Part shown: piece by piece, positions 7,989 through 56,072 of the stretch
Layout: every line of letters begins with the position of its first letter
Numbering within the stretch: the first letter of the stretch is position 1
IMG/VR virus record: IMGVR_UViG_3300034069_000634
Location: 1-64,000 of that record
Source of the DNA: a virus
Length of the DNA stretch: 64,000 nucleotides
Reading direction: 5' to 3' (one strand)
The notes under the pieces: generated by a model
Seen by the model: only the letters and a program-made list of their open reading frames with translations
The model's database searches: none
Told to the model about the DNA's origin: nothing
Made by a program: the position numbers and the translations under genes

Positions 7989-8852
7989 ATGGCAGGCGGT
8001 ATCCCGTTTTCGCAAGCGCTTCAGATCATCGGCGGCGTCCCGCTCCAGAAGGTCGGGAGTGTCTTTGCGGAGAAGCTCTCGATCACGAAGCGCCTCGACG
8101 GCGGCGCCGTCGGCGACCTGATGAAGAAGGTCATCGCGGACGGCAATCTCTCCTCGATCCTTCAGAACCCTCAGGCCGCGATCACGAACGCGATATCCGG
8201 GCAACTCGGCGGGCTTGCGTCGCAACTCGGTAGCATTCCCGGGGCCTCGGGTCTGATCTCATCGCTCACCGGATCGACTGGGCTCGGTTCCGTCCTGTCG
8301 ACGTTCCAGGCGGCCGGGAACACGCTCGCGGGTCTTACGGGTGACGGCTCGGGGTTCTTTACCATGCTGGCGCACGACGCGACGGCACAGATGGCCGGAG
8401 AGGCGATGCCGGCTTCGGCACTGACCTCGGTCGTCACAGCTCCGCTCACGGCCTCGGGCCTTCTCGGGTCGATCCAGACTGTTCTTCCCCAGATCGTCGG
8501 TCAGGTCGTCGCCGGCACGCTCGACCCGACGACCGCGCAAGCCTGGGTCGATGGGGTTGCCGCGCAACTCTCCGGCATCGTTACGGCATCGAACGACGCG
8601 CTCGCTTGGTCGGCCGCGAATCACGTCCGGATCGCCGCCGTCGCGACGATCGGCGGGGCGCTTGCCGTGCCACCGGTCTTCGATAGCGCCGGAAATCGCC
8701 AGGAAGGGGCCGCCACGGGCTTTCAGGGGGTTTTGCAGTCGCTGGTACAGCCGAGCGCCGTAGGGCCTCTGTCGGATGCCCTGAACGCGCTCACGGCCGC
8801 GAAGCGCTACGATCCGGTCGATCCGGACGATTACACGAGCCTGGAGGGGTGA
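7989..8852 (+). CDS. Gly/Ala/Ser-rich structural protein
   Basis: 287-aa ORF in the baseplate block. Its TGA overlaps the first bases of repeat element copy 1. Confidence 0.5.
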   Translation: MAGGIPFSQALQIIGGVPLQKVGSVFAEKLSITKRLDGGAVGDLMKKVIADGNLSSILQNPQAAITNAISGQLGGLASQLGSIPGASGLISSLTGSTGLGSVLSTFQAAGNTLAGLTGDGSGFFTMLAHDATAQMAGEAMPASALTSVVTAPLTASGLLGSIQTVLPQIVGQVVAGTLDPTTAQAWVDGVAAQLSGIVTASNDALAWSAANHVRIAAVATIGGALAVPPVFDSAGNRQEGAATGFQGVLQSLVQPSAVGPLSDALNALTAAKRYDPVDPDDYTSLEG

Positions 8853-9018
8853 GGTACGGGTTCCAATTTACGCCAGGGATCCTGAAACTCTCTGGTACAA
8901 AGTACCATTCCGCTCCTGGATTTATATTCTTATCTTCTTCTTCTAGAGAGAGAATATATGTAAGGATTAAAACCGGTAGAGTTTCAGGATCCCTGCCGTA
9001 AATTGGAACCCGTACCTC
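8851..9018 (+). repeat. long-stem AT-cored palindromic intergenic element, copy 1 (candidate structured RNA or MITE-like)
   Basis: The two arms pair over about 42 bp with one C/C mismatch. The core is about 75 nt and AT-rich, and there is no ORF. It shares conserved asymmetric blocks with the copies at 27670 and 50776. Confidence 0.85.
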
Positions 9019-9032
9019 GGGAGGAGATCGCG

Positions 9033-9431
9033 ATGAGGGTAAGAAAAGTCGACGAGAACGGAGACATGGTCTTCGGCGGCGATCAGGCGGCATTCCTCCG
9101 GAACTCTCCGGATGCGGTTGCCCAGATCGTCGAGAGCCGCCTCAATCTCTGGCAGGGCGAGTGGTATCTCGATCTCTCGGACGGGACGCCGTACGAGCAG
9201 AACGTCCTTGGTCGTTATACGGCGAACGTCCGTGACGCCGTCCTTCAGCGCCGGATTCTCACGACACCCGGCGTCGATGCGATCAAGACGTACTCCGGCT
9301 TCTTCGACACGACGAGCCCGCGGGACTACAGCGTTTCCGTCGAGCTAAAAACCGCGTATTCAAGGGGCGGTAGTGCCAGCGGTGCGCCGACTCCGGCGGT
9401 TTTGAACACCAAGGTCGAATTTGGACGCTAG
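9033..9431 (+). CDS. small baseplate wedge protein (gp25/W / Mu gp46 position)
   Basis: A GGGAGGAG SD precedes ATG 9033. The LNLWQGEWYLDLSDGTPY pattern is typical of small baseplate proteins encoded before Baseplate_J genes. Confidence 0.45.
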   Translation: MRVRKVDENGDMVFGGDQAAFLRNSPDAVAQIVESRLNLWQGEWYLDLSDGTPYEQNVLGRYTANVRDAVLQRRILTTPGVDAIKTYSGFFDTTSPRDYSVSVELKTAYSRGGSASGAPTPAVLNTKVEFGR

Positions 9432-9434
9432 CGC

Positions 9435-10631
9435 ATGGGCTCGACGCCAGTCCTTAGGATCACCGACGCCGGAGCGGCGAAGCCGACGCTCGCAGAGTGT
9501 CTCGCGTTCGTTCAATCCGCTTATCGAGGGATCTACGGCGCCGACACCTATCTCGGCAACGATAGCCAGGACGGGCAGTTCACGGCCCTTCTCGCCCAGG
9601 CGCTCGATGATGTTAACGGCGAGGCGCTGGCGACGTACAACGCCTATGCTCCGAGTTCGGCACAGGGCGCGGGGCTCTCCTCCGTCGTGAAGATCAACGG
9701 GATCCGACGTAAGGTCCCGACCTACTCGAAGGCCGACTTCCTTCACGTCGGCCGCGCGTTCACGATCGTCAAAGGCGGTCTCGTGACCGACCCGGCCGGT
9801 TATCAGTGGGCGTTTCCGGATTTCACGATCCCGACCTCGGGTCAGATTCTCGTCACCGGGACATGCACGACGATCGGCGCGATCGCGCTTGCCGCGAACG
9901 CCGTCGACACCGCGAACGGAGGTGGGCAGATCGCCACGATCCAGAACGGATGGCAATCCGCAATCAACCCGTCGGCCGCTGTCGTTGGTGCGCCGGTCGA
10001 GACCGATAGCCAGCTTCGCAGACGACAGGCCGCATCGGTTGCGCTTCCGTCCAGAACGATTCTCGGAGGCCTCGTCGGTGCTCTCCTTGCGGTCGAGAAC
10101 GTGACGCGAATCCGTGCCTATCAAAACGATACGAACGCACCCGATGCGAACGGGATTCCCGGGAAGGGAATTTCGATCGTTGTCGAAGGCGGCGACGCGA
10201 CGATGATCGCAACCCTCATCGCGTTGAAAAAAGGCGCTGCCGGGACATACGGATCGACCGTCGTTTCGATAACCGATGATGTCGGGATATCGCGCAATAT
10301 AAACTTCTTTCGTCCGACGATCATCCCGATCTCGTACGCGATGACGATCAAACCGCTTACGGGTTATACGAAGGACGTTGAGACGCAAATCCAGCAAAGC
10401 CTTGCGGACTGGACTTCTAGTCTTGGCATCGGGAACGGGATTCTCCTCTCTCGTGCTTATGCCCCGGCCGATCTCCCGGATTTCCCGACGGGAAACACAT
10501 TTGAAATTATTCCAAACTCGCTTACCGCCGCGCGAGACGGACGCCCGACGACTGCTTCAGATGTCGTTCTCGCGTTCAATGAAGCACCTGTCTGCGTCCC
10601 GTCGAGCGTGGCAATCTCGTATACGACATGA
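9435..10631 (+). CDS. baseplate J-like protein
   Basis: 398 aa, with size, position and general sequence character matching Baseplate_J family proteins. Confidence 0.6.
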   Translation: MGSTPVLRITDAGAAKPTLAECLAFVQSAYRGIYGADTYLGNDSQDGQFTALLAQALDDVNGEALATYNAYAPSSAQGAGLSSVVKINGIRRKVPTYSKADFLHVGRAFTIVKGGLVTDPAGYQWAFPDFTIPTSGQILVTGTCTTIGAIALAANAVDTANGGGQIATIQNGWQSAINPSAAVVGAPVETDSQLRRRQAASVALPSRTILGGLVGALLAVENVTRIRAYQNDTNAPDANGIPGKGISIVVEGGDATMIATLIALKKGAAGTYGSTVVSITDDVGISRNINFFRPTIIPISYAMTIKPLTGYTKDVETQIQQSLADWTSSLGIGNGILLSRAYAPADLPDFPTGNTFEIIPNSLTAARDGRPTTASDVVLAFNEAPVCVPSSVAISYTT

Positions 10632-20230: not shown

Positions 20231-20661
20231 TGCGGCGCCTCGCTCCTCTTTTCGCTCTTCTGCTCTTCGTCGCTCCGGCCTTCGCGCAGAGCACGCAGAG
20301 CATCCCGTTCCGGCGGATCAGCGACCCGGTTCAATTGACCGTCGCCGCGACGCCGACAATGACGATGGTTCCGCAGGACCGTCTCAAGGATCCGAAGAGT
20401 GGCCAGCGCGTCACGAGCTTCTACGTCGTCAACCCGAACTCGGTCTATGTCCGGTTCAAGGGGTTCTCGACGGCTGCGGACTGCGCGAATCAGGCCGTGA
20501 CCCCGACGACCGGCTGGCTCGTCCCGCCGGGCTTCGTCGGCGTGTTCTCGACGCAGTATCCGATGTGCGGATCGACGCTCGCCGTCTCGATGCCCGGCAA
20601 CCCGATTACGAGCGCGACGACGTACGCGCCCCTGGAGTGGTCGTATGGCTTCGGTCAGTAA
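20227..20661 (+). CDS. secreted protein
   Basis: [20 protein letters not shown] signal peptide. Confidence 0.5.
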
Positions 20662-21757
20662 GAGCCTTCTCGCCGCCGCACTCGGGCTCCTCGTCTTCGC
20701 AGGCGCGCCGGCCGGTGCGTTCGTTCGGCAGAATGGGACAGGACAGCAGGGCATCGCCGGACCGACCGGGACTCCTGGCGCGAACGGCGCCGTCGGTGCT
20801 CAGGGTCCAATTGGCCCCGCCGGAAAGGATGGTCTTCCGGGTGCTCAGGGGCCAGCCGGATCGACAGGAGCGGCCGGCGCCAAGGGCGATACGGGTGCGA
20901 CCGGCACTCAGGGTCCGCAGGGCATTCCTGGCGCAAGTGGAGCAACGGGTGCGACTGGTCCGTCGGGTGCGACTGGTCCGTCGGGTGCAACGGGTTCGCA
21001 AGGAATAAAAGGCGATACGGGCGCGACCGGTGCGCAAGGAATTCAGGGCGCGAAAGGCGATACCGGATCCGCGGGGCCGCAGGGCGCCACAGGCTTGACA
21101 GGCGCGACCGGCCCGACTGGAGCAACGGGCGCGAAAGGCGATACGGGCGCAACGGGAAGCGTTGGCGCAACCGGCTCTCAGGGTGTGAAGGGCGACACGG
21201 GAGCAGCAGGAGCGACCGGACCGCAAGGGCCGATAGGAGCGACCGGCGCGACTGGCCTAACGGGTGCGACAGGCTCGGCCGGTCCTACAGGTCCGAAAGG
21301 CGATACCGGTGCGACAGGTGCCCAAGGGCCGATCGGCCTGACCGGAGCGACTGGTCCGACAGGAGCGACTGGTCCGACAGGAGCAACCGGTGCAACTGGT
21401 CTCCAAGGTGCTACGGGTGCAACTGGACCCGCCGGAATCGTCCCGACTTACGGCCCGAGCGGTCTTCGGACCGGCGCGAAGGTCTGGGTTGGATCGGTCA
21501 CAGCCTCGAACGGCCTCTGGTCCGTCTCGATCTCGTCCGCTGGATGCACGGCCGCGCCCTACAACGTTCAGGCCCAGGCCCAGGGCGTCGACGCGACCGC
21601 GGCCGGTGTCCGGATGGCGAACGTCTCGACGGTCACGACGACGACGATCTCCGGGAACGTCTCGCAGGCCGCAACGGTCTCGCTCCTCGGCGTGCTGTCG
21701 CTCAATCTCGCTACAACCGGAACGCCGACCGTCTTCATCGAGGCGTGGTGCAACTAG
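20645..21757 (+). CDS. secreted collagen-triple-helix-repeat protein
   Basis: 370 aa with a signal peptide, about 78 uninterrupted Gly-X-Y triplets, and a 106-aa globular C-terminus. Confidence 0.7.
20735..21436 (+). repeat. coding Gly-X-Y (9-nt periodic) tandem repeat
   Basis: GATGxTGxxG-type triplets run throughout. This region generates the long spurious ORFs seen in other frames. Confidence 0.8.
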
Positions 21758-25404: not shown

Positions 25405-27038
25405 GGTAGCGCCTCCAGCATCTCGCGATAATCGCCGATTCCGAGTTCCGATATACTCTTTTTTCTTTTCAGGTTCGCGAGAATCTTTCGGTCCCCGGAT
25501 CGGTTCGCGATCAGGTCGGTATGCGTGACGAGACCGCTCGCTCCGATCCGCTGGATCCGCTTCTCGCTCTGCCATCGATCGAGCGCTCGGTCGTCGTTCG
25601 AATAGTACAGGTCGGAGACGCACGCTCCCTGAAGGTTGAGGCCGGCGCCACCACATTGAGCATTTCCGACGAACACCTCGGCGCCCCGCGGCGAAAGGAA
25701 CGACTCGACGTTCTCGGCTCGCGCCTTGTCGGTCACGCCGCCGTGGTACTCGACGAACGTCCGTCCGATCCGGTCGAGGCGCTCGGCGATGAGCGCGATG
25801 TCCTGGCGGAACTTCGCCCAGATCACGATTTTCCGGCCGTCGTGCGCGTCGAGATACTCCTCCATCGCATTGAGCCGCGGGTTCTTGGCCGGCTCGACGA
25901 GGAGGTGAGCCCGACGATTCTCGTCGAGAACGAAGCCGTTCGAGATCTGTTGGATCTTAGAGGTCGCGACAGCCATGTTCGCGGCCGTAATCTCGGCACC
26001 GGATTCGAGTTCGGCGAGAAGCTCCTGTTTGAGCGCGCGCATCGCCGCGATCTGGCGCGGGTCGAGGTCGAAGGTCCACTCCTCGAAGACCGGCGGTAGG
26101 AGTCCGATGTCCTCCTGCGTCACCCGGAACGAGACCGGGTCGGTCAGACGCCGGAACTCGTCGATGTTGGTGTGGCCGACGACCTCCCGGCCCTCGTAAC
26201 CGCCCATCCGGCAGAAGCGTGCCCGGAAGGTCGTGACGTACTTGATCCCGAGGACCGACTCGTCGAGCCACTTCAACTGCGCCCATTCGTCGGTCAGGTC
26301 CTTGGCGATCGGCGTTCCGGTCAGGAGCGTTCGGACCGGGCTCGCGGCCTTCTTGCGGATCTCGTCCATCGCCCGCCAGCGCGCCGAGGCCGCGTTCTTG
26401 ATCTCCTGACTCTCGTCGGCGACGATGAACACCCGGCCGCGATGGGCAGTGACGAAGTCGAGCGCGGCGCGCTTGCCCTTCTCGGCCTTGGCGCCGTCAT
26501 AGTTGATCGCGAACACCTTCAGGCGCCCGTCCTTCACGAGAAGCGTCTCGGGAAGCCTGGACATCGGCCAGAAGGCACCGTCCCAGGCGTCGGAGCCGTA
26601 ATGCGCCGGGAATTGCTCGGCGATCCACTGCCGGTGCGGACCCTTCTTCGAGACGACGAGGACGGCGTCGATCCGGTTCTCGGCCCAGAGTTGCCCGGCC
26701 CGGTCGATCGCGACCTTCGACTTGCCCGTTCCCATGTCCATGAACAGGGCGAACCGGTCGAGCATCCGCCGGAGCGCCTCATCCTGATGCGGGAACGCCT
26801 TCGTCTTCGACACGTACGGCGGTCGGTCGGATTCGAACGCCTCGACCTCGGGCGTCGGATCAGGGGCCGCGACGCCGGGGAGCATCCGGATCCGTTCGAG
26901 GTTGTGGCCAGTCGGCTCGAAGTGCAGTCCTGCGGGGCTCCAGCGCCGACGGCCTTCGAGCCGGCCGGCGACGAACAGGACGTCGGGCGTCGCCGCGGTC
27001 CGGAGGAGAGCGGAGGTCTCGGTGAGTTCGAGGATCAT
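25401..27038 (-). CDS. SNF2-family helicase
   Basis: Motifs MDMGTGKSKVAI (Walker A) and DESQEIKN (DExx), plus C-terminal helicase motifs. The ATG is coupled to the deaminase stop. Confidence 0.8.
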   Translation of the reverse strand: MILELTETSALLRTAATPDVLFVAGRLEGRRRWSPAGLHFEPTGHNLERIRMLPGVAAPDPTPEVEAFESDRPPYVSKTKAFPHQDEALRRMLDRFALFMDMGTGKSKVAIDRAGQLWAENRIDAVLVVSKKGPHRQWIAEQFPAHYGSDAWDGAFWPMSRLPETLLVKDGRLKVFAINYDGAKAEKGKRAALDFVTAHRGRVFIVADESQEIKNAASARWRAMDEIRKKAASPVRTLLTGTPIAKDLTDEWAQLKWLDESVLGIKYVTTFRARFCRMGGYEGREVVGHTNIDEFRRLTDPVSFRVTQEDIGLLPPVFEEWTFDLDPRQIAAMRALKQELLAELESGAEITAANMAVATSKIQQISNGFVLDENRRAHLLVEPAKNPRLNAMEEYLDAHDGRKIVIWAKFRQDIALIAERLDRIGRTFVEYHGGVTDKARAENVESFLSPRGAEVFVGNAQCGGAGLNLQGACVSDLYYSNDDRALDRWQSEKRIQRIGASGLVTHTDLIANRSGDRKILANLKRKKSISELGIGDYREMLEALP

Positions 27039-27643
27039 CGACGACCTTCCGCCTTGTTGAGGTTTTCGATCATGCGGCCAGCGAAGACGTACCAAGTCCG
27101 AAGGGCCATATCCTCCGGCTTCAGGATCTCGCGGGATTCGATCGTCGAGCCCGATTCGGAAAGACGGCCGATCGCGTAATCATCGAAGCTCCAGCGCCGC
27201 GGCTCGCCTGAGACCTCGATGAATGCTGCCCCGTACGAAACTCCGGCCTCTCTGAGCATGTCAGACGCCGCGTCCCATTGCTCGTTGTCACCGCCGAACC
27301 GGCCAGGGCCGTATGTGAACCGAGAAACTCCTGCGGCGATCATCTCGCCAGCACAGGCCGAGCAGCACCGATGCGTGCAGTACACGGACGTGTTCTGCGT
27401 TCGGATCCCGTGATATGCGGCGGTAGCGATCAGGTTCCGCTCGGCGTGGTTCGCGAACAGGTACTTCCGTGGCCGCTCCCGCCGATCCGGGAGATCGCGG
27501 ACGCCAGGGGCCGGGCCGTTGAACGCCGTGAGCAGGACGCTCCGGCCGTTCGGCGCAACGAGAACGGCGCCGACCTTGGTCGCGTCCTTCGACTTCCGCG
27601 CGGCGTGCTCGGCGAAGCCGTACAGGTACTCGTCCCATTCCAT
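27035..27643 (-). CDS. dCMP (deoxycytidylate) deaminase
   Basis: HAERNLI (HAE) and CTHRCCSACAGEM (PCxxC-like) zinc motifs. Confidence 0.75.
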   Translation of the reverse strand: MEWDEYLYGFAEHAARKSKDATKVGAVLVAPNGRSVLLTAFNGPAPGVRDLPDRRERPRKYLFANHAERNLIATAAYHGIRTQNTSVYCTHRCCSACAGEMIAAGVSRFTYGPGRFGGDNEQWDAASDMLREAGVSYGAAFIEVSGEPRRWSFDDYAIGRLSESGSTIESREILKPEDMALRTWYVFAGRMIENLNKAEGRR

Positions 27644-27669: not shown

Positions 27670-27837
27670 CGAGGTACGGGTTCCAATTTACGGCAGGGAT
27701 CCTGAAACTCTCTGGCGTTTATATACGTATATATTCTTCTTCTTTATATATAAGATAAGAATATATATCCATAATAGAAAACGAACTCGCACCAGGGAGT
27801 TTCAGGATTCGAGGGGTAAATTGGAACCCGTACCTCG
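27670..27837 (-). repeat. long-stem AT-cored palindromic element, copy 2
   Basis: Read on the - strand, its 3' arm is 40/40 identical to copy 1. It lies between a stop codon (27851) and the AAGGAG SD of the deaminase gene. Confidence 0.85.
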
Positions 27838-27850
27838 GTCGGGTTGGGCG

Positions 27851-28072
27851 TCAGTCGCGAGGCTTTGCGCGTGGCAGAGGCTGTCGCCACTCGATAAGAT
27901 CCATGGCGCATCCTCGGCAGAAATCGCCCTCCTCAAAGATTCCCCTTTCGCTATGAGGGTTTGAGACGTTGCGAGTCGCCGTTTCGAGACGCATCCAGCC
28001 CTTCGGGAGATCAGGAGCCGGAAGGCGAGAAATCTCCCCGCAGCGGTCACATTCGAAGATTCGCGCCATCAC
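27851..28072 (-). CDS. zinc-finger protein
   Basis: 73 aa with CDRC..CRGC. Confidence 0.5.
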   Translation of the reverse strand: MMARIFECDRCGEISRLPAPDLPKGWMRLETATRNVSNPHSERGIFEEGDFCRGCAMDLIEWRQPLPRAKPRD

Positions 28073-32189: not shown

Positions 32190-33002
32190 CTAATACCCCG
32201 CCGCCTCCTTCAGACGGTCGAAGTAACTTTTCGGCAGGGTCAGGGTCACGGTGCCTTCGGTCTCATCGATATCAACCTCGGAGACGCGCAGCATTTCGCC
32301 GACGGCTTTCTTGAGCGAGGAGCGCGGCTCGCCACCCTCGACGTGCTTGGCTGTGGCGCGGGTCTTCCCGGCCTTCTTCGCGGTCTCGATGGCGCCAGCG
32401 AGATCGGACACGGCCTTGCCGGTGTCGCCCTCGGCCGCGCGAACGGTCTTCATCGCGAGGTCGGCAGAGACCTCGCCGGAGCGGACCATCGCCTTGACCT
32501 GTTCCGGGGCCGACTGAACTTCGAGCAACTGCACGACGCGCGTGCGGGTGATGCCGGTCTTCTTGGCGATCTCGCCCTCGTTCCAGCCGAGATCGAGGAG
32601 CTTCTTGAAGACCTTGCCCTTCTCGAACGGTGACAGCGGTTTGCTGGAGTTCCGGACGATCTGCGACAGGACGTGATCGGCCTCGGACGCGTACCGGGCC
32701 TCGGTCTGGACCGGGACGGTCTTGATCTCGGCTTTCAGGACGTCTCGGGCGTAGAGCGCTGCGGCGCGGCGACGGTGGCCGTTGGTGATGTAGGCGCGGC
32801 CGTCCTCCCAGATCGCCGTCATCGTCTCCTTCACGCCGACCTCGGCGATCGACTGCGCAAGCGCGAGATCGTCCTCGTCGTTCGGGTTGAAGTCGACGTC
32901 TCGGGCGTTCCAGCCCTGGCGGATGTGGAGGTCGTCGAGACTGATGCGGAACGTGTCCGAGCGGCCGGCGGCGATGCCCTGGATTCCGGTCTTCGTGGTC
33001 AT
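32190..33002 (-). CDS. parB: ParB-like nuclease-domain / partition-type protein
   Basis: ITNGHRRRAAAL (ParB box) plus an HTH (IAKKTGITRTRVVQLL). Confidence 0.7.
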   Translation of the reverse strand: MTTKTGIQGIAAGRSDTFRISLDDLHIRQGWNARDVDFNPNDEDDLALAQSIAEVGVKETMTAIWEDGRAYITNGHRRRAAALYARDVLKAEIKTVPVQTEARYASEADHVLSQIVRNSSKPLSPFEKGKVFKKLLDLGWNEGEIAKKTGITRTRVVQLLEVQSAPEQVKAMVRSGEVSADLAMKTVRAAEGDTGKAVSDLAGAIETAKKAGKTRATAKHVEGGEPRSSLKKAVGEMLRVSEVDIDETEGTVTLTLPKSYFDRLKEAAGY

Positions 33003-36752: not shown

Positions 36753-37016
36753 TTATTTGGAGACGAGAGCCGACCGCGTCATCGCGATGTCTCCGAGTTG
36801 ACGGGCGGCCTGGACGAATATCGTGCGCCCATCGGCCGGACCCATGACCGCGACAGCGTCACGGATCATCTGTTCCGCGGTATCGAGGCTGGAGAGCTTC
36901 AAGGGGTTGCAAATGACATACTGACCGGTCGCCAATGCGAATTTGGTCGGACGCGTCAGAACCTCGGCGCCTTGCATGATCGGCTGAAAGGTCTTCGCGG
37001 CGTGATTGTCGGTCAT
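36753..37016 (-). CDS. hypothetical protein, single-gene unit
   Basis: 87 aa. Its promoter and leader are shared with 37094..37336. Confidence 0.5.
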   Translation of the reverse strand: MTDNHAAKTFQPIMQGAEVLTRPTKFALATGQYVICNPLKLSSLDTAEQMIRDAVAVMGPADGRTIFVQAARQLGDIAMTRSALVSK

Positions 37017-37059
37017 CGGTTCGGTTCCTTCTCTCCGGCTCGTCTCCGGCCGTGGCTCT

Positions 37060-37091
37060 ATATAGCGCCATCCCATCGGAAAAGAAAAGCG
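37060..37091 (-). promoter_or_regulatory. early promoter motif F: CGCTTTTCTTTT-N14-CTATAT
   Basis: Located 44 nt upstream of ATG 37016. Part of a duplicated 78-nt cassette. Confidence 0.6.
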
Positions 37092-37093
37092 TT

Positions 37094-37336
37094 TTATTCG
37101 ATGACATACTCAAGCTGGCCGGGAAACAGGTAGAACGAGCCGTTACCGTTCCGGACGCGGTAGCCTTCGCCGTCCGCCTTCAGGAGCCACTCGCCAGCCT
37201 TCTCGAAGCGGCGGTAGACCTTCCGGTCGAGAACCATGACGCGGAGAGCGGTCCGGACGACGAGGCGACCGCCGCCCGCGATGTAAGCCAGGGCCTCGTC
37301 GGTGGAGTTCGCGGGAACGGGGCTGGTGGTAGCCAT
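37094..37336 (-). CDS. hypothetical protein, single-gene unit
   Basis: 80 aa. This is the leftward-transcribed gene nearest the divergent promoter region. Confidence 0.5.
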   Translation of the reverse strand: MATTSPVPANSTDEALAYIAGGGRLVVRTALRVMVLDRKVYRRFEKAGEWLLKADGEGYRVRNGNGSFYLFPGQLEYVIE

Positions 37337-37379
37337 CGGATCAGTTCCTTCTCTCCGGCTCGTCTCCGGCCGTGGCTCT

Positions 37380-37411
37380 ATATAGCACCATCCCGACAAA
37401 AAAGAAAAGCG
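37380..37411 (-). promoter_or_regulatory. early promoter motif G: CGCTTTTCTTTT-N14-CTATAT
   Basis: Located 44 nt upstream of ATG 37336. It is divergent from motif I. Confidence 0.6.
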
Positions 37412-37461
37412 CCTTTTCCCGGTTCAGGTACGTTTTTTTTCGTGCGAAATCGCGAAAAAAG

Positions 37462-40032: not shown

Positions 40033-40752
40033 ATGTTGTTGCTTGGTGATTGTCTCGAAGAGATGAAGAAGATTGAATCCGGTTCAGTCGATATGGTTAT
40101 GTGCGATTTGCCATATGGCACTACACAGAATAAATGGGATGAAATTATCCCGCTCAATCTTTTATGGATTGAATACATAAGAATTTGTAAAGGCGCTATT
40201 GTGCTTACATCGCAACAGCCTTTCACCAGCAAACTCGTTATTTCAAACCCATCAATGTTCAAATACGAATGGATCTGGAAAAAGGAGTCCGGTACAGGTC
40301 ATCTTAATGCGAAAAAAGCTCCGCTTAAGGATCACGAAAATATTTTGATTTTCTATAAGGATCAGCCTACGTATAACCCGCAAATGAGAACGGGCTTTAA
40401 GCCGTATAGTTGTAAACAAGGAGCGAAAAAGAGCGAAAATTACGGATCTCAGACAGGGGCGTTTACCGTAAGCGATGGCTCTCGTTATCCTTTAACAACG
40501 ATTGAGTTTTCTCGCGATCGAAACAAAGTTCACCCAACTCAAAAACCTGTCGCCCTCCTTGAATACCTCATTCGAACCTACACGAACGAGGGCGATACGG
40601 CTCTTGATAACACGATGGGATCCGGTTCGACGGGCGTCGCTTGCGCTAATACCGGTCGCAAGTTCATCGGTATCGAGAAAGATCCGGCCTATTTCGCCAT
40701 CGCCGAGCGCCGCATCGCGGAGGCTCAATCTCTCGCCCAGGCTGCGGAGTAA
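40033..40752 (+). CDS. N6-adenine/N4-cytosine DNA methyltransferase (AT-rich island)
   Basis: CDLPYG (DPPY-type) and DNTMGSGSTGVAC (FxGxG AdoMet) motifs. The true ATG is at 40033, inside ORF-track entry 39892..40752. Confidence 0.8.
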   Translation: MLLLGDCLEEMKKIESGSVDMVMCDLPYGTTQNKWDEIIPLNLLWIEYIRICKGAIVLTSQQPFTSKLVISNPSMFKYEWIWKKESGTGHLNAKKAPLKDHENILIFYKDQPTYNPQMRTGFKPYSCKQGAKKSENYGSQTGAFTVSDGSRYPLTTIEFSRDRNKVHPTQKPVALLEYLIRTYTNEGDTALDNTMGSGSTGVACANTGRKFIGIEKDPAYFAIAERRIAEAQSLAQAAE

Positions 40753-46159: not shown

Positions 46160-46228
46160 GACCTAGACCCCGGTTCGGGTTCGCTTTAGAACGTCAAAAC
46201 CGCGAAAGTTTCCGGTTAAGGATTTCCA

Positions 46229-47020
46229 ATGCCAGGAGCGGCTTATTACAATGAAATCGATCCCTACGCCGCGGCTTGGCTGCGAAACCTCATCGCCGCC
46301 GGACATATCGCCCCCGGCGAGGTCGACGAGCGCGATATCCGAGATGTCTCGCCCGACGATCTGCGAGGCTTCGTCCAGTGCCATTTCTTCGCAGGAATCG
46401 GCGTCTGGAGCTATGCCCTCCGGCTCGCCGGGTGGGACGACGAACGGCCGGTGTGGACCGGTTCCTGTCCGTGTCAGCCTTTCAGCGCGGGAGGCTCAAA
46501 AAAGGGATTCGTTGACGAGCGGCACCTCTGGCCGGCTTGGTTCCATCTCATCGGAGAGCAAGCGCCTGGGTTTGTCTTTGGAGAGCAGGTTGCGAGCAAG
46601 GACGGCCTCGGTTGGCTCGACCTTGTTTACGCTGACATGGAAGGTGCGGGTTACACCATCGGGGCTGCCGATCTGTGCGCTGCGGGCGTCGGTGCTCCGC
46701 ATATCAGACAACGACTCTGGTTCGTGGCCCACGCCGACACGCAGCGATACCAGAGGATACAGCGAGAGCGCAGTTTTAGATTGGGTGAGGAAAGAAAGAA
46801 AGAATACACACAATTTAGATTTAAATCTTGCAGCCAAATTGGCAATTATTCCGGTTGGGTTTCCTGCCATGATGGGAAAATCCGGCCAATTGAACCCGGC
46901 ACATTCCCGCTGGCTCATGGGATTGCCAACCGCGTGGGACGACTGCGCGCCTACGGCAACGCGATCAATGCGGAAGTCGCCGCGACCTTCATAGCCGCCG
47001 CCCTCGACGTCCTCCCGTAA
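46229..47020 (+). CDS. DNA (cytosine-5) methyltransferase; a second overlapping frame is also open (46251..46994)
   Basis: Motifs [26 protein letters not shown] and AYGNAI are in this frame. The +1 frame shows SWPTPTRSD and [13 protein letters not shown]. Confidence 0.7.
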
Positions 47021-47032
47021 TCGGAAATCACC

Positions 47033-49243
47033 ATGAAAAAGTTGAAGATTCTGACCGACGTTCCGTCCCTGCGCGACTACTTCTCGCGCATCGGCGCGGA
47101 GCCGAGGAGCCTGCGGACGGCGGTCGTGAAGGAGGTGTCGGGGAAATACTGGCGCGATCTCGCGGTGATCCGCGTCGACGAGAAGGGCGCGATCAGCGCG
47201 CCGCTTGAGTACGCGCCGACGGAAGCCGAGGCGGCTGCGATCATCGAGGGGTGTATCGAGTACGACTGGCCGAAGATCAAGCCGCTCGCCGCGCTGGGAT
47301 CGGTCCCGCCGATGGTGGCCGACGCGGATCCGAAGAACGTGTTCGAGTTCCGCAACGACGCGAACGAGATCGTGATGCTCCAGGTGCGGATGGAGCGCGA
47401 CAACGAGCGCGCTTATGTGCCGTGGACATATTGGGATGACGATGAGTGGCGCTCGGCCGAGCCGGACGGGCCGCTGCCGCTGTTCAACGCGCATCTCCTG
47501 AAGGGCGCCTCGACGGTGTTCATCCACGAAGGCGCGAAGGCGGCGCGGTTCGTTCAGACCATGGTCGAGGGCAAGACCCGCGAGGACCGGGATCGGCTGA
47601 AGGCGCACCCGTGGGGCCTGGAGATGACCGGCGCGGTTCATGTCGGATGGATCGGGGGCGCGATGAGCCCCGGCCGGACGGATTGGACGGTGATCAAGAA
47701 GGCCGGGATCGCGCGGGCGTTCATCGTCGCCGACAACGACGAGCCGGGGAAGTCGGCGGTCCCGAAGATCGCCCAGGCGCTCCGGTGTCCGACCTTCGCG
47801 ATCCAGTTCACCGACGAGTTCCCGGCGAGCTTCGATCTCGCCGACCGGTTCCCGGAGAAGATGACGAAGGGGCCATACTATACCGGGCCGGCGTTCCGGG
47901 AGTGTCAGCACCCCGCGACCTGGGCGACGGACCAGATCCCGAATCCGGAGGGCAAGGGACGGCCGCTCACGGTCCTGCGGGAATCGTTCCGGTCGATGTG
48001 GGCCTACGTCGAGGAAAGCGATCTGTTCGTCTGCCGGGAGATGCCGGAGATCCTCCGGCCGGAGCCGATCCTGAACAAGATGCTGGCCTCGTTCTCACAC
48101 GTCAACGAGACCTCGAAACTGATCGTGAAGGCGTATCAGGGGCGCTCGACCCGGCTGTGCTACCGGCCGGATCACGAGGGGCTTCAGGTCACGTTCCGGG
48201 GTTCGTCGGCGATCAACCTCCACGTCCCGGGGCCGATCAAGCCGGCGACCGGGGATCCGAAGCCGTTTCTGGATTTTCTGAGCTACCTGTTTCCGAACGA
48301 GCGTGAGCGGTACGAGGTCGAGCGGTGGTGCGCGACCCTGATCGCGCGGCCCGATATCCGGATGTCGTACGGGCTCCTGCTGATCTCCGAGAAGCAAGGG
48401 GTCGGCAAGACGACCCTCGGGGCCGGGATCCTGGCGCCGTTGGTCGGGGTCTCGAATGTCGGGTATCCCGGCGAGAACGACGTGACGGCCGCGTTCAACG
48501 ATTGGGTTGCGCACAAGCGATTGGCGATCGTCAACGAGATCTATTCCGGCTCGTCGTGGAAGGCGTACCACGCCCTGAAGTCCGTGATCACCGACAAGGA
48601 GGTCATGGTCAACCAAAAATACACACGTCAGTACGTCATCGACAATTGGTGCCACGTTCTCGCGTGCAGTAACTCCATGCGGGCGCTCAAGATGGAGAAC
48701 GACGATCGCCGTTGGTTCTATCCCGAAGTCACGGAATTGCCCTGGGGTAGGGATAAGTTCAATTTGTTTCGTGAATGGATAGATGCTGGCGGCCTTTCTA
48801 TAGTTAAAAGATGGGCGTTAGACTTTGGAGATTACGTGGAACCGGCGGAACGTGCGCCGATGACTGACCGGAAGAAGGAGATGATTGAGGGATCACGTTC
48901 CGAGGCTCAGGCAGAAGCTGCCGCGGTCGCCGAAGCACTTCGCGACATGAAGAATCCGGCGGCCGTTGCTTTGAAAGACGTTGTCGCTTTCGTGCGGTCC
49001 CATGCCCAGGGACGGGTGTTCGACAGCGATTACGAGTTGCGCAAGGCGATGGTCGATTGCGGCGTCGTGCCCCTGAAGAAGCGGATCAAGATCGGTGGCC
49101 GGTTGCAGTACGCGATCGCCAATGAGGCCCTGGCCGATGCGCTGCGGAACATGGGCAACGATCCCGAGGCCGATGGGCCGAAGGCCGCGCTCATCCGGGA
49201 GCGGATCGTGAAGTGCTCGGACCTGATCCATGGGGAGATGTGA
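47033..49243 (+). CDS. primase-helicase (Toprim + SF3/D5-like)
   Basis: Toprim-like IHEGAKAA..VADNDEPG and Walker A SEKQGVGKTT. Confidence 0.75.
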   Translation: MKKLKILTDVPSLRDYFSRIGAEPRSLRTAVVKEVSGKYWRDLAVIRVDEKGAISAPLEYAPTEAEAAAIIEGCIEYDWPKIKPLAALGSVPPMVADADPKNVFEFRNDANEIVMLQVRMERDNERAYVPWTYWDDDEWRSAEPDGPLPLFNAHLLKGASTVFIHEGAKAARFVQTMVEGKTREDRDRLKAHPWGLEMTGAVHVGWIGGAMSPGRTDWTVIKKAGIARAFIVADNDEPGKSAVPKIAQALRCPTFAIQFTDEFPASFDLADRFPEKMTKGPYYTGPAFRECQHPATWATDQIPNPEGKGRPLTVLRESFRSMWAYVEESDLFVCREMPEILRPEPILNKMLASFSHVNETSKLIVKAYQGRSTRLCYRPDHEGLQVTFRGSSAINLHVPGPIKPATGDPKPFLDFLSYLFPNERERYEVERWCATLIARPDIRMSYGLLLISEKQGVGKTTLGAGILAPLVGVSNVGYPGENDVTAAFNDWVAHKRLAIVNEIYSGSSWKAYHALKSVITDKEVMVNQKYTRQYVIDNWCHVLACSNSMRALKMENDDRRWFYPEVTELPWGRDKFNLFREWIDAGGLSIVKRWALDFGDYVEPAERAPMTDRKKEMIEGSRSEAQAEAAAVAEALRDMKNPAAVALKDVVAFVRSHAQGRVFDSDYELRKAMVDCGVVPLKKRIKIGGRLQYAIANEALADALRNMGNDPEADGPKAALIRERIVKCSDLIHGEM

Positions 49244-49955: not shown

Positions 49956-50254
49956 CCGACAAGAAACAGATCCCCAAGGAGATCGCGCGAGCATTTGAGG
50001 CGTTCGATATCGCCTCATCGACGCTTGCCGGTCAGATCTGGATCGCACCGGGCGATGGTGACGAGGCGGACAGGACGCAGGCCGAGCTTTTCTCCGAGAT
50101 CCGTCGAGCCCTGATCGCCGCCTACGACGCAGGCTTCGCGGCCAGTGGCGAGGAGTGGAACGGCGAGTATCCGGACGCCGAGGACCGGAAGGAATCGTAC
50201 GAGCGGACGCGGGCCGAGTGGCTTGAGGATTTTGCGAAGGAGGGAAAGCGATGA
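49952..50254 (+). CDS. hypothetical acidic protein
   Basis: 100 aa, ATGA-coupled. Confidence 0.45.
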   Translation: MTDKKQIPKEIARAFEAFDIASSTLAGQIWIAPGDGDEADRTQAELFSEIRRALIAAYDAGFAASGEEWNGEYPDAEDRKESYERTRAEWLEDFAKEGKR

Positions 50255-50748
50255 AGGGTGTTTCAGGATACCGGCCGCCGAACGTGACGAAGCTGTCTGT
50301 TCGAAGCGCCGTTCAGAGAGAGCCGAATCTGCACAAGAGGAGGCTTTTCAAAAAGGAAAGCGACTTAAGATCCTGGGTCAAAGAGCGTACGCAGGATCCA
50401 TTCTGGATCGAGCCGACGCGCGGTTCGACGATCGGCGTGCCGGACGTCTACGCCCATGATAGCGGCGGAGTATGGGTCGAACTCAAACACGGAGACTGCA
50501 AGGACCGGCGCCTTCTCCAGTGGAAGCCGAGACCGGGGCAATACGACAAGATTAGAACGTTGCGAAATCGAGGGGCACGGGTCGGTGTAGCGATCGGTTT
50601 TGGCAATCTCATTTTCGTGACCAGCGACCCCGAGCTTTTCCGGGTCGGATGGGCGGAGATCCGGGCCGAGGATCTCATCGACGGGCGAGACCCGGATGCG
50701 TGGTCTCGCGTGATCGAAACGATCCTAAACGACTGTCAGAAAACATAA
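50251..50748 (+). CDS. VRR-NUC / PD-(D/E)xK-type nuclease (resolvase-like)
   Basis: ESDLRSWV..PDVYAH..GVWVELK pattern. Confidence 0.5.
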   Translation: MKGVSGYRPPNVTKLSVRSAVQREPNLHKRRLFKKESDLRSWVKERTQDPFWIEPTRGSTIGVPDVYAHDSGGVWVELKHGDCKDRRLLQWKPRPGQYDKIRTLRNRGARVGVAIGFGNLIFVTSDPELFRVGWAEIRAEDLIDGRDPDAWSRVIETILNDCQKT

Positions 50749-50775: not shown

Positions 50776-50935
50776 CGAGGTACCAGTTCCAATTTTTCGC
50801 ATGTTCCTGGGTACGGGAGCATTTTAGTCTCTGGATTCATATTCTTATCTTCTTCTTATAATAAGAAGATTATATATAAGGATTAAAACCGGGAGAGTCC
50901 CTGCCTCCGAGGGGTAAAAGTGAACTGGTACCTCG
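50776..50935 (+). repeat. long-stem AT-cored palindromic element, copy 3 (diverged)
   Basis: Core blocks are 26/27 and 16/16 identical to copy 1. The outer stem is retained through compensatory changes. Confidence 0.8.
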
Positions 50936-51045: not shown

Positions 51046-51840
51046 TTGAACCGTCTCAAGCCCGTCCTGGCCCCGTTTCTGGGCGCCCTAGCCCTCCTCG
51101 CGACCCTTCTCGGTCCCGTGTTCGCGGAAACCTCCTGTCCCGCGCACTACGCCGACGGGAAGCCGCCCGAACTCGCCCAGGCCGACCTCGGCGCGATCGA
51201 GCTTTGCTCCGAGGCGTTCGCCGTCGCCGTGACCCCCGCAACCATGAACCCGGTCTACGCGGCCGAGCACCTCACGCCCGCCGGCCTTGCGGGCGCGGTC
51301 CAGATCCCGCGGGTCGACGCCTTCCACCCCGACGAGCGCGTCCCGTACGACTTCCGCGCCGAGCTTCGGGACTACGCCGCCTCCGGCTTCGACCGCGGCC
51401 ACATGGCCCCGGCCGGCGACATGCCGACCCCGAGCGCGCAGCATGAGAGCTTCGCCCTGTCGAACATGGTCCCGCAGAACCCGAACCTGAACCGTGGCCT
51501 CTGGGCGAAGATCGAGGAGCGCGTCCGCCGCGAGGTCGTCCTTCGGAAGGAAGGCTTCGTCGTCACCGGCCCGGCGTACTCGGGCGCCCCGAAGCGGCTC
51601 AATGGCCACGTGATGATCCCGACGCGGATCTGGAAGGCGGTCTACATGCCGGGCGATGCCGCGACGAACACCCCGGCGCTCGCGGGTGCCTACATCGTCG
51701 ACAACGCCGCCGATGCGAAGGCCGAGATCGTCTCGATCGGTGCACTGGCGCGCACGATCGGCTTCGACCCGATCCCCGGAGCGCCGGCTGAGGCTCACAG
51801 TCTCGCCAACCTTCCGGCCGTGACGGAGGCGTCTCGATGA
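51046..51840 (+). CDS. secreted DNA/RNA non-specific endonuclease (NucA/EndoG family)
   Basis: TTG start, a signal peptide, and the FDRGHMAP..SNMVPQNPNLNRG active-site motifs. Confidence 0.75.
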   Translation: MNRLKPVLAPFLGALALLATLLGPVFAETSCPAHYADGKPPELAQADLGAIELCSEAFAVAVTPATMNPVYAAEHLTPAGLAGAVQIPRVDAFHPDERVPYDFRAELRDYAASGFDRGHMAPAGDMPTPSAQHESFALSNMVPQNPNLNRGLWAKIEERVRREVVLRKEGFVVTGPAYSGAPKRLNGHVMIPTRIWKAVYMPGDAATNTPALAGAYIVDNAADAKAEIVSIGALARTIGFDPIPGAPAEAHSLANLPAVTEASR

Positions 51841-52309: not shown

Positions 52310-52614
52310 AGCGGTGTAACCGAGATATCAGAGCCGAAGGCTTTGAAGCCCCTGATGCTTGCGCAAAGTGTGTGTCCGGACCGTGCCTCGTTTACGAAGG
52401 TCAACCGAACCCAACGCGCCTACAACCCCCGTCCGGCGGATCCTCCGTCCAACGCCCGTCGCTCTCGCGCGAGGCCGAGATCGATGCTCGTGCTCGTGCC
52501 TTTGATCTGGCGATGAAAATCGCAGCCCAGTCCGACCGCGCCGAAGGGTTCCAGTTCCCGGACCTTGTCGAAATTTCGAACCGGATTTTCCTGTACCTCA
52601 CGAGCGGCAAATGA
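52306..52614 (+). CDS. hypothetical protein
   Basis: 102 aa with a GTG start. Confidence 0.4.
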   Translation: MKRCNRDIRAEGFEAPDACAKCVSGPCLVYEGQPNPTRLQPPSGGSSVQRPSLSREAEIDARARAFDLAMKIAAQSDRAEGFQFPDLVEISNRIFLYLTSGK

Positions 52615-55497: not shown

Positions 55498-56072
55498 CTT
55501 GTTTAATCGAAGGCTGTGAGAACAAGACTATCGCTCGTGGCCTTTGCTCTTCTCATTATCAAAGATTAAGAAAATACGGGTCCCCATTCGGGGGTCGTCC
55601 GACGTTTGTCGGAGAAATAAAGGAATATTTATATAATTTTGTTCTCCCGTACGAAGGAGAAGACTGCATCATTTGGCCCTATTCAATTCATAGAGGCCGA
55701 GCATATATGACTTTAAAAGGTAGATCCAATATAGCGGCCAGAATTATTTGTGAAGAGACTCAAGGATTTCCCCAAGATTCAAATTTAGATGCGGCTCATT
55801 CTTGCGGTAATAAAATATGTGTAAACCCAAATCACATTCGTTGGGCAACAAGAAAAGAAAATGAAGCCGATAAGATAATTCACGGTACAAAAAATCAAGG
55901 AGAAACGGTTTGGAATTCTAAACTGAGAAAAGAAGACGTTTTAAAAATATTGCAATTAAAGGGAGAAAAGACCGGAGTTGAAGTAGCTAGGTATTTTGGC
56001 CTTCATCCGACGACGGTTCGGATGATTTGGCGAGGCAAGAGATGGGCGCACTTATCTCAAATCGCTCCTTAG
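55494..56072 (+). CDS. HNH homing endonuclease (AT-rich) between terS and terL
   Basis: AAHSCGNKICVNPNHIRWATRKEN core. The ATGA overlaps the terS stop, and the 3' end overlaps the terL start. Confidence 0.75.
   Translation: MTCLIEGCENKTIARGLCSSHYQRLRKYGSPFGGRPTFVGEIKEYLYNFVLPYEGEDCIIWPYSIHRGRAYMTLKGRSNIAARIICEETQGFPQDSNLDAAHSCGNKICVNPNHIRWATRKENEADKIIHGTKNQGETVWNSKLRKEDVLKILQLKGEKTGVEVARYFGLHPTTVRMIWRGKRWAHLSQIAP

Follow-up and report, generated by a model that had tools for sequence, protein, structure and literature searches.

A family of long palindromic intergenic repeats at fixed gene junctions in uncultured myovirus-like phages

What does a long palindrome do between the genes of a tailed phage? 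Non-coding DNA is scarce in such phages and repeats are normally purged from them, so that the question is raised with some force by a 168-nt non-coding element in IMG/VR virus record IMGVR_UViG_3300034069_000634, of which positions 1 to 64,000 were analysed here (this whole 64-kb stretch is the window referred to below). The original prediction for this locus had taken the element to be the founding copy of a three-member family with long stems and AT-rich cores that belongs to no known class, and had entertained a structured or RNase III-processed RNA, a selfish element resembling a miniature inverted-repeat transposable element (MITE), a cruciform or protein-binding site, and an embedded promoter. 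The element represents a new family of palindromic intergenic repeat, the function of which is unproven, and the comparative evidence leans slightly to the cruciform or protein-binding site over a hairpin that acts in the transcript.

Anatomy, distribution and evolution of the element

The window contains three homologous elements of 158-168 nt, each consisting of GC-rich inverted arms, an AT-rich core and an inner hairpin (Table 1). A hidden Markov model (HMM) of the family recovers exactly these three copies (E = 1e-36 to 1e-41), as the original prediction had it, and no further significant match in the 64 kb; nothing marks copy 1 as the founder. The arms of copy 1 are 41 nt each, are 98% complementary with one C/C mismatch and lie 86 nt apart, and pairing extends a few bases further inward (CTGG/CCGG), which agrees with the ~42 bp of pairing, the single mismatch and the ~75-nt AT-rich core described at the outset. 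As a single strand, copy 1 is predicted to fold at -94 kcal/mol as RNA (z = -14.8) and at -53 kcal/mol as DNA (z = -15.1), and its fold energy is matched by none of 200 shuffles. A cloverleaf with separate arm hairpins was considered and rejected, because L074 (a contig introduced below) and other copies still fold as rods. The inner hairpin, which had been thought possible, is present and lies 0-6 nt from the symmetry axis of the arms.

The arm sequence of copy 1 reappears at 27671-27836 in copy 2, which is assigned to the minus strand because the core is reversed there. Copy 3 retains only 15 nt of perfect pairing at its termini (fold z = -6), and repeat finding recovers the two core strings that it had been said to have in common with copy 1, at 93% and 75% identity. 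The G+C content of the window is 61%, and the three cores occupy ranks 1, 2 and 5 among its most AT-rich stretches of 40-60 nt. Across the family, the arms measure 15-53 nt and the elements 154-170 nt, with no conserved open reading frame (ORF) inside; a small antisense ORF in copy 1 (AGGAG-N4-ATG, 24 codons) is not kept in other variants and was discarded.

Judged by sequence searches, the family appears to be confined to a narrow clade of uncultured myovirus-like phages. A scan of IMG/VR demanding both 13-nt termini found it in two contigs and their Joint Genome Institute (JGI) originals, and further members were found by protein-guided retrieval of gene neighbourhoods. In the 65.7-kb relative IMGVR_UViG_3300017684_000001, copies occupy the three junctions known from the window, namely those of gp25 (L016), dCMP deaminase (L013) and NS endonuclease (L040), the flanking proteins being 80%, 69% and 61% identical, respectively, to those of the window; in neither of these two genomes is a copy found outside the three shared junctions. 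A third genome (68 kb, L074) has a copy at the dCMP-deaminase junction, and variants occupy the gp25 junction in contigs L035, L033, L032, L034 and L036, in which the gp25 proteins are 72-83% identical. Presence at the gp25 junction varies among relatives: in L030 (75% protein identity) the element is missing and a 67-aa cysteine-rich ORF (9798-10001) lies exactly at the place expected for copy 1, and in L018 and L019 (50% identity) there is no element and the two genes abut.

No copy was found in 185,579 bacterial and archaeal species genomes (GTDB) by two complementary exact-pattern scans, and BLAST of the elements found no homologue among PLSDB plasmids and GenBank phages. Several apparent matches were rejected: Burkholderia phage BCSR129 matches in a pyrimidine tract of 28 nt that does not lie in a palindrome, single-arm and core patterns gave only chance matches in AT-rich genomes of IMG/VR, termini relaxed to W (A or T) gave only chance matches in coding DNA of the same database, and the more distant dCMP-deaminase contexts L077 and L078 belong to different phages without the element. 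Metagenome contigs L009 (1379-1633), L010, L014, L015 and L012 (404-554) contain palindromes 151-156 nt long that share the termini of the family (CGAGGTACTGGTTCC or GAGGTACATGTTC), and these are regarded as unproven relatives because their cores and contexts are unrelated. The short-read (Logan) contigs L006, L032, L033, L034, L036 and L076 start 25-105 nt inside an element; palindromes systematically break short-read assemblies of this clade.

Copies cluster by genome and not by site. Copies 1 and 2 of the window are 82% identical, and in the 65.7-kb relative the gp25 and dCMP-deaminase copies are 99% identical and the third is 86% identical to both, whereas orthologous copies in the two genomes are only 68-71% identical; the family therefore undergoes concerted evolution. 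Moreover, the element of L036 is identical to copy 1 at 103 of 105 positions, whereas the adjoining gene is only 60-85% identical, and because identity drops exactly at the end of the element, the element is a discrete unit of exchange or conversion. Mosaic breakpoints were considered and rejected, since the elements mark no step in the identity of the flanks.

Past the first 13 nt, the arms are almost wholly different between genomes (GAGGTACGGGTTC-CAATTTACGCCAGGGATCC in the window, GAGGTACGGGTTC-ACTTTTTTGGGTCAAAAGTGGGTAC in the relative, and different again in L035 and L033), and despite this replacement both arms of each copy stay complementary, so that the 25-35 nt between the outer 13 nt and the core motif have been replaced with compensation. 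In an alignment of eight sequences, 90.9% of the cells are paired, compared with 78.7% in shuffles, and 16 pairs have changed in both partners, which is more than in any of 500 shuffles; when the pairing partner is slid by 1-3 columns as a control, only 28-48% are paired. In copy 3 and in L074, pairing in the middle of the arms is lost and the box and core are kept. The core motif and an A+T content of 72-88% persist in 61% G+C genomes despite ~30% divergence, which implies selection on a part of the element that a transposase would not need. In the 65.7-kb relative, a G-rich purine tract (GGGGGAGGGGAG-like) precedes every copy (L016 3814-3827, L013 1431-1445, L040 3694-3712), and at the L040 site it is mirrored on the opposite side (CCCCTCCCC), lengthening the palindrome; the window copies have no such tract.

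Conserved boxes and a possible role as a DNA site

The outermost 13 nt form a conserved box, GAGGTWC-NN-GTWC, which consists of two tandem hexamers (GGAACC-CGTACC, GGTACT-GGAACC or GGAACT-GGAACC). Such double-hexamer boxes (G-G/C-W-A-C-N, twice) stand at both ends of every copy in inverted orientation, and between them lies the conserved core motif CTCCT ... TATTCTnnYTT - loop - AAGAAGA ... TATATA ... AAAACCGG; the distance from AAACCGG to the end box, counted on the family sequences, is constant at 34-35 nt. The pattern GWACNNGWACC occurs 15 times in the window against 1.3 expected, with 6 occurrences in the elements and 3 more in the small intergenic fraction (Table 1). The spacer at 46161-46228 has a weak likeness to pieces of the element (p ~0.04); as a decayed fourth copy it is not significant, since 11 of 300 shuffles score as well. 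The hexanucleotide GGTACC occurs twice in the 64 kb, where ~21 occurrences are expected, and both are in the termini of copy 3 (50777-50789 and 50922-50934). The spacing of the copies is roughly even in both complete genomes (18.8/23.1/26.1 kb in the window genome and 19.7/21.9/24.0 kb in the relative), and in a post hoc test, a spread at least as even is expected for three random points on a circle with a probability of ~0.03; because the genomes are syntenic, the two spacings are one observation.

Tentatively, these elements may be a phage-specific cis element of the DNA itself, prone to form cruciforms, recognised by a phage protein, possibly origin-like, and comparable with the homologous regions (hrs) of baculoviruses. 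A phage-encoded DNA-binding protein would bind the inverted double-hexamer boxes at both ends, and the AT-rich centre, which is itself palindromic, would then melt, or the whole unit would be extruded as a cruciform; most likely, the site would serve to assemble or initiate phage DNA metabolism. Template-switch correction of quasi-palindromes is a known mutational process, and such palindrome correction during replication would keep the arms complementary while ectopic gene conversion would homogenise the copies within one genome. The end boxes, the AT-rich palindromic centre, the lack of wobble bias in the arms (see below), the syntenic concerted evolution, the recurrence of the box and the spacing lean slightly to this reading. 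The layout of the element is that of a palindromic origin, in which an AT-rich centre is flanked by inverted repeated boxes, and its distribution is of the hr type, with dispersed palindromes at conserved positions that are more alike within than between genomes.

The hrs are known for concerted evolution and conserved genome positions. Dispersed and imperfectly palindromic, they serve as origins and enhancers (PMC4535591). Like hrs, the phage elements are several dispersed non-coding palindrome-based copies per viral genome, alike within and diverged between genomes, at conserved positions. An hr, however, is an array of 60-70-bp repeats with 24-30-bp palindromes, lies in an AT-rich genome and is bound by IE-1, whereas each copy of the element is a single palindrome of ~160 bp, AT-rich at its centre, and the tailed phage that carries it is GC-rich. 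The origins oriL and oriS of herpes simplex virus (HSV) and those of polyomaviruses are likewise built as a long palindrome with an AT-rich centre and inverted initiator boxes, the initiator being a superfamily 3 or related helicase, and HSV has several origins. The element resembles them by layout only, as an AT-centred long palindrome with inverted end boxes; these origins lie between divergent promoters and not in operons, and there is no sequence similarity. An origin-like analogue may also be seen in the halo-like contigs, from an unrelated metagenomic replicon, in which 3.6 tandem copies of a 25-bp repeat resembling iterons come immediately after a palindrome of 154-156 nt with identical 15-nt termini.

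Candidate trans factors are encoded in the window, namely a D5-like primase-helicase at 47033-49243, a DnaE-type polymerase and a ParB-like helix-turn-helix protein at 32190-33002. Initiation of replication at the elements by the D5-like primase-helicase is conceivable and rather doubtful, and it is similarly unlikely that the three evenly spaced copies are dispersed palindromic, hr-like multiple replication origins or initiator assembly sites in a tailed phage. As an alternative use of a DNA site, the element might serve as a centromere-like or transcription-roadblock site for the ParB-like protein. The dispersed centromere sites of the plasmid-prophage N15 and the stoperators of mycobacteriophages are 13-30 bp long and are bound by a phage ParB-type protein or a repressor; they resemble the element as palindromic or oriented sites scattered through phage operons, and differ from it in that no ParA or repressor was identified in the window. 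The ParB-like protein has 86% identity and an unchanged helix-turn-helix between genomes whose arms differ, so that covariation of this protein with the arm type was rejected; the protein could still bind the conserved box.

Several points weigh against a DNA site. The identical helix-turn-helix across arm types means that the ParB-like protein cannot explain the turnover of the arms. Relatives without an element at the gp25 junction (L030, L018 and L019) indicate that any function it has is dispensable or clade-specific. Complementarity over the full length of the arms would be needless if only the boxes and the AT-rich centre mattered, the conservation of the extra box occurrences is not established, and chance could account for the even spacing and for the halo-like analogue, both of which were noticed post hoc. 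Consensus sites for IHF, DnaA and CtrA are absent from the cores, and GC skew has no feature at the elements. Finally, a role in the transcript would be just as compatible with elements that are fitted tightly, within operons, between a stop codon and a Shine-Dalgarno sequence. A low-GC region at 40-41 kb was examined as an alternative origin and rejected, because it is a methyltransferase gene of the N6/N4 type (40033-40752) with a G+C content of ~53% against 61%, which suggests that this gene was recently acquired by horizontal transfer.

Transcript-level, selfish and other explanations

If the element acts in the transcript, a 40-53-bp duplex in the polycistronic mRNA would be cut by host RNase III or would block 3′-exonucleases, and would thereby uncouple the stability or expression of the flanking cistrons; this is possible and somewhat doubtful. 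The original prediction had placed copy 1 from inside the upstream TGA to the Shine-Dalgarno sequence of the next gene, and its coordinates were confirmed. At the three sites, more than 10 copies lie 0-33 nt past a stop codon in co-directional arrays and in the same orientation, and at the gp25 and dCMP-deaminase junctions a Shine-Dalgarno sequence lies within 0-15 nt of the element. The fold would bring the upstream stop codon beside the downstream ribosome-binding site; the copy 3 type is 110-123 nt from the next start codon, and such a juxtaposition therefore cannot be a general role. In every copy seen, the AAAACCGG end faces the downstream gene, so that the co-orientation with genes noted originally holds for all three window copies; as evidence for function it is weak (chance 1 in 4), because the sites number only three and the copies are linked by descent or conversion.

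Extreme stability is predicted for the folded RNA (z = -6 to -15), and an unpaired CUCCU-like motif, as read from the sequences, persists on the sense strand of 7 out of 9 variants. Duplexes of 40-53 bp are substrates of RNase III, and the predicted stems of this length exceed the duplex of at least ~20 bp that is needed, in transcripts that are presumed from gene order. Nevertheless, the stems are about twice the length needed by any known processing site, and neither the conserved sequence at the stem base nor the conserved AT-rich core would be necessary for RNase III. The sense strand folds better in copy 3 (-62 vs -48.5 kcal/mol) and in the L013 type (-99 vs -93), whereas copy 2 folds better as the antisense strand, and there is no consistent difference between the strands. 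A structured RNA should favour G·U over A·C on one strand; 16 of the arm mismatches count as G·U when read in the sense strand and 13 when read in the antisense strand, the remaining 40 being of other types, so that no G·U excess is found. The absence of wobble bias and the inconsistent strand energies suggest that complementarity is upheld in the DNA, as template-switch correction could do, or that the sample is too small, and the compensatory changes of the arms are explained equally well by a DNA palindrome as by an RNA.

The known systems that are closest at the RNA level differ from the element in several respects. The RNase III sites of T7 are ~50-60 nt long and have a characteristic internal loop; they are, like the element, a family of related intercistronic phage hairpins oriented with transcription, and they are not near-perfect 40-53-bp duplexes and have no AT-rich conserved core. 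Correia elements of Neisseria and enterobacterial repetitive intergenic consensus (ERIC) repeats resemble the element in their 100-170 bp, inverted-repeat ends, conserved core and intergenic location (PMC2649163; PMC10969869). They are co-transcribed with their neighbours, and their RNA hairpins are bound or cut by RNase III (PMC2649163; PMC10969869); in particular, Correia elements, with an inverted repeat and a conserved core, are bound, cleaved or protected by RNase III (PMC2649163), which speaks for a hairpin in the transcript. Correia elements, however, have TA target duplications, an IHF site and junction promoters and occur in hundreds of copies at variable sites of bacterial chromosomes, whereas the element described here, found only in phage genomes, has three copies at fixed sites and lacks a duplication, an IHF consensus and a promoter. 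By analogy, the element would work most like hrs and herpesvirus palindromic origins at the DNA level, and most like Correia, ERIC and T7 sites at the RNA level; it belongs to no family with which it was compared. The readings as a DNA site, an RNA hairpin and a selfish element are not mutually exclusive, and an element acting in DNA would also fold in mRNA.

The element belongs to no known RNA, promoter or terminator class, in line with the original prediction, which had found no such class and no insertion sequence (IS) or MITE family to place it in; scans with Rfam and for terminators and scans of genomes gave no match. Rfam gave no match at gathering threshold in the 64-kb window, and a relaxed search (E up to 10) returned only plant microRNA-precursor models, which are generic for long hairpins, at 15-49 bits against cut-offs of 65-230. 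A search for tRNA and transfer-messenger RNA found nothing. No Rho-independent terminator, that is, a hairpin followed by a U-tract, is present at copies 1 and 2 or in L013, which is a further point against a transcript hairpin, and at copy 3 the scan found weak sub-hairpins only, no more than in shuffles. In integrons, every gene is followed by an attC site, an imperfect palindrome of 57-141 nt with the orientation of that gene, and the element shares with these sites conserved ends and a variable yet complementary interior. The ends of the element, however, read GAGGTAC-NN-GTTC ... GAAC-NN-GTACCTC, with GTTC on the left and GAAC on the right, so that the order of the motifs is reversed relative to RYYYAAC/GTTRRRY, and protein-family scans of the window found no integron integrase.

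A stand-alone structured RNA, such as a ribozyme, a small-RNA precursor or a mimic of a host repeat of the clustered regularly interspaced short palindromic repeat (CRISPR) type, is most improbable. The arms are loosely like CRISPR repeats in shape (GTTCC...GAAAC, 29 nt) and long rod-like hairpins can be small-RNA precursors, but Rfam models including CRISPR-DR and ribozymes have no match even at E up to 10, plasmids contain no similar sequence, and the arms are inverted, not direct, and are not conserved in sequence between genomes.

An embedded promoter, in which the AT-rich core drives the downstream gene and the arms insulate it, has been suggested by the TATAT-like strings and the pyrimidine tract of the core. 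The element always lies just upstream of a gene, and promoters can arise from Correia elements (PMC2649163). However, no sigma-70-type promoter (-35/-10 with 16-18-nt spacing) was found in the four copies scanned, the spacing from pyrimidine tract to TATA varies between copies, and the window encodes no phage RNA polymerase. The motif AAAAnnCGCTTTTCTTTT-N14-(C)TATAy (also as AAAAnnCGCTTTTCTTTT-N14-CTATAT), which occurs at 9 sites upstream of early-region genes, is probably the early promoter of the phage; a position weight matrix built from these sites gives 41-59 bits at the sites themselves and at most -6.4 in any core. The suggestion was therefore abandoned as highly unlikely. The -35 region of the early-promoter-like motif is unlike TTGACA, and the motif is also present in the relatives L079 and L080. 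Two adjacent small genes have such a site together with their leader in a 78-nt direct duplication (37014-37091 and 37334-37411, 91% identity).

Finally, the element might be a resident selfish palindrome of MITE-like character, which would have entered the ancestor of the clade and spread to three permissive junctions without benefit to the phage, and this we consider unlikely. Its persistence could be explained, with the same reserve, if it folds away harmlessly while template switching keeps the palindrome and gene conversion homogenises the copies. Some of the traits by which MITEs are defined (PMC11602168) are present, namely terminal inverted repeats of at least 10-15 bp with conserved ends, small size, multiple copies, no internal ORF and no transposase gene. 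Moreover, sister lineages lack the element at the same junction, the L036 element has been exchanged as a discrete unit, the arms of copy 3 and L074 are decaying, and the junctions are plastic, small ORFs being gained and lost beside the elements. However, no direct repeat abuts the ends of more than 10 copies at 3 sites, so that the target-site duplication of 2-10 bp expected of a MITE is lacking, as had been stated originally; no transposase was found in the window; there is no copy in the species genomes, plasmids and GenBank phages searched; the positions are fixed and not variable; and the conserved AT-rich core implies selection. Because it has no target-site duplication, no source transposase, no host copies and fixed positions, the element is not a classical MITE. 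IS elements and MITEs are, in addition, rare in phages through strong purifying selection (PMC11602168).

Genomic setting and significance

The window covers most of a myovirus-like phage genome (a 68,037-bp JGI contig). Neighbouring genes were annotated with PHROG and Pfam. The genes identified encode baseplate proteins, the sheath initiator, a collagen-repeat fibre protein and a large terminase with an intein; SNF2 and UvrD-like helicases are encoded besides the polymerase and the primase-helicase named above; and an HNH endonuclease and two DNA methyltransferases are present together with the ParB-like protein. No RNA polymerase, integrase or transposase was found among the window genes in protein-family scans. 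The nearest cultured phages are Burkholderia phages, which are only distantly related, and relatives of the window proteins at 50-60% identity are found in prophages of Methylobacterium and Labrys.

Table 1. Positions in the window of the three copies, their parts and neighbours, and other features mentioned in the text
Feature	Position	Strand	Remarks
Copy 1, whole element	8851-9018	+	168 nt; arm analysis and family HMM (HMM bounds 8851-9019)
Copy 1, left arm	8851-8891	+	Inverted-repeat analysis; outer box GAGGTACGGGTTC at 8851-8863, conserved in all family members
Copy 1, core	8892-8977	+	AT-rich; inner hairpin ~8923-8958; motifs CTCCT, ATATTCTTATCTT, AAGA-rich, TATAT, AAAACCGG
Copy 1, right arm	8978-9018	+	Outer box GAACCCGTACCTC at 9006-9018; Shine-Dalgarno sequence GGGAGGAG immediately 3′
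Copy 1, upstream gene (baseplate block)	7989-8852	+	TGA 8850-8852 shares its last two bases with the first two of the element
Copy 1, downstream gene (gp25-like sheath initiator)	9033-9431		ATG 9033; gap 14 nt
Copy 2, whole element	27670-27837	-	Repeat finding and family HMM (HMM bounds 27670-27836); inner palindrome 27728-27767
Copy 2, upstream ORF (73 aa, CxxC)	27851-28072	-	Stop 13 nt before element
Copy 2, downstream gene (dCMP deaminase)	27035-27643	-	ATG 26 nt beyond element
Copy 3, whole element	50776-50935	+	HMM bounds 50777-50935; degenerate arms with perfect pairing at termini only; core close to that of copy 1
Copy 3, upstream gene (small, nuclease-like)	50251-50748		Weak VRR-NUC-type similarity; stop 27 nt before element
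Copy 3, downstream gene (secreted NS-type endonuclease)	51046-51840		Start 110 nt beyond element
Extra intergenic double-hexamer box GTACCTGAACC	37421-37431	-	Adjoins early-promoter-like site; relative has GAGGTAC at equivalent place; membership uncertain
Extra intergenic box GAACCCGAACC	46172-46182	-	Spacer upstream of C5 methyltransferase gene
Extra intergenic box GAACTGGAACC	52547-52557	-	Membership in system uncertain
Early-promoter-like sites	24594, 29274, 31928, 33070, 36751, 37091, 37411	-	
Early-promoter-like sites	37462, 52827	+	

The plasticity of the junctions can be seen beside copy 2, where the 73-aa CxxC ORF is absent from the 65.7-kb relative. Elsewhere in the window, the gene at 20645-21757 in the tail-fibre region encodes a protein with collagen triple-helix repeats (PF01391) and is the source of the largest direct-repeat family, and the large terminase gene (56027-58225) carries a Hint/intein insert at approximately residues 388-656, between the ATPase and nuclease parts. 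The second methyltransferase, of the C5 type, is encoded at 46229-47020, and the tetranucleotide CTAG is strongly avoided (20 occurrences against 225 expected). In the lysis-proximal region of two relatives (L032 7571-7810 and L074 18522-18761), a protein of the Acb2/Tad1-hairpin family is encoded, which by Pfam match belongs to the anti-CBASS/Thoeris sponge family.

Because MITEs and insertion sequences are purged from phages (PMC11602168), a palindrome that is retained in three copies deserves attention. That a near-perfect palindrome of ~160 bp with conserved ends and AT-rich core, and with arms that turn over under compensation, has persisted at three junctions while the genomes diverged speaks for a cis-acting system that has gone unrecognised. 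As an RNA hairpin, the element would represent a conserved processing module between cistrons that is of unusual size and not covered by the T7 paradigm. As a DNA site, which is tentatively preferred here, it would be without described precedent in phages as an hr-like or multi-origin palindrome system, and would offer a route to the study of how replication starts in such phages. The element also illustrates how concerted evolution can mimic repeated insertion.

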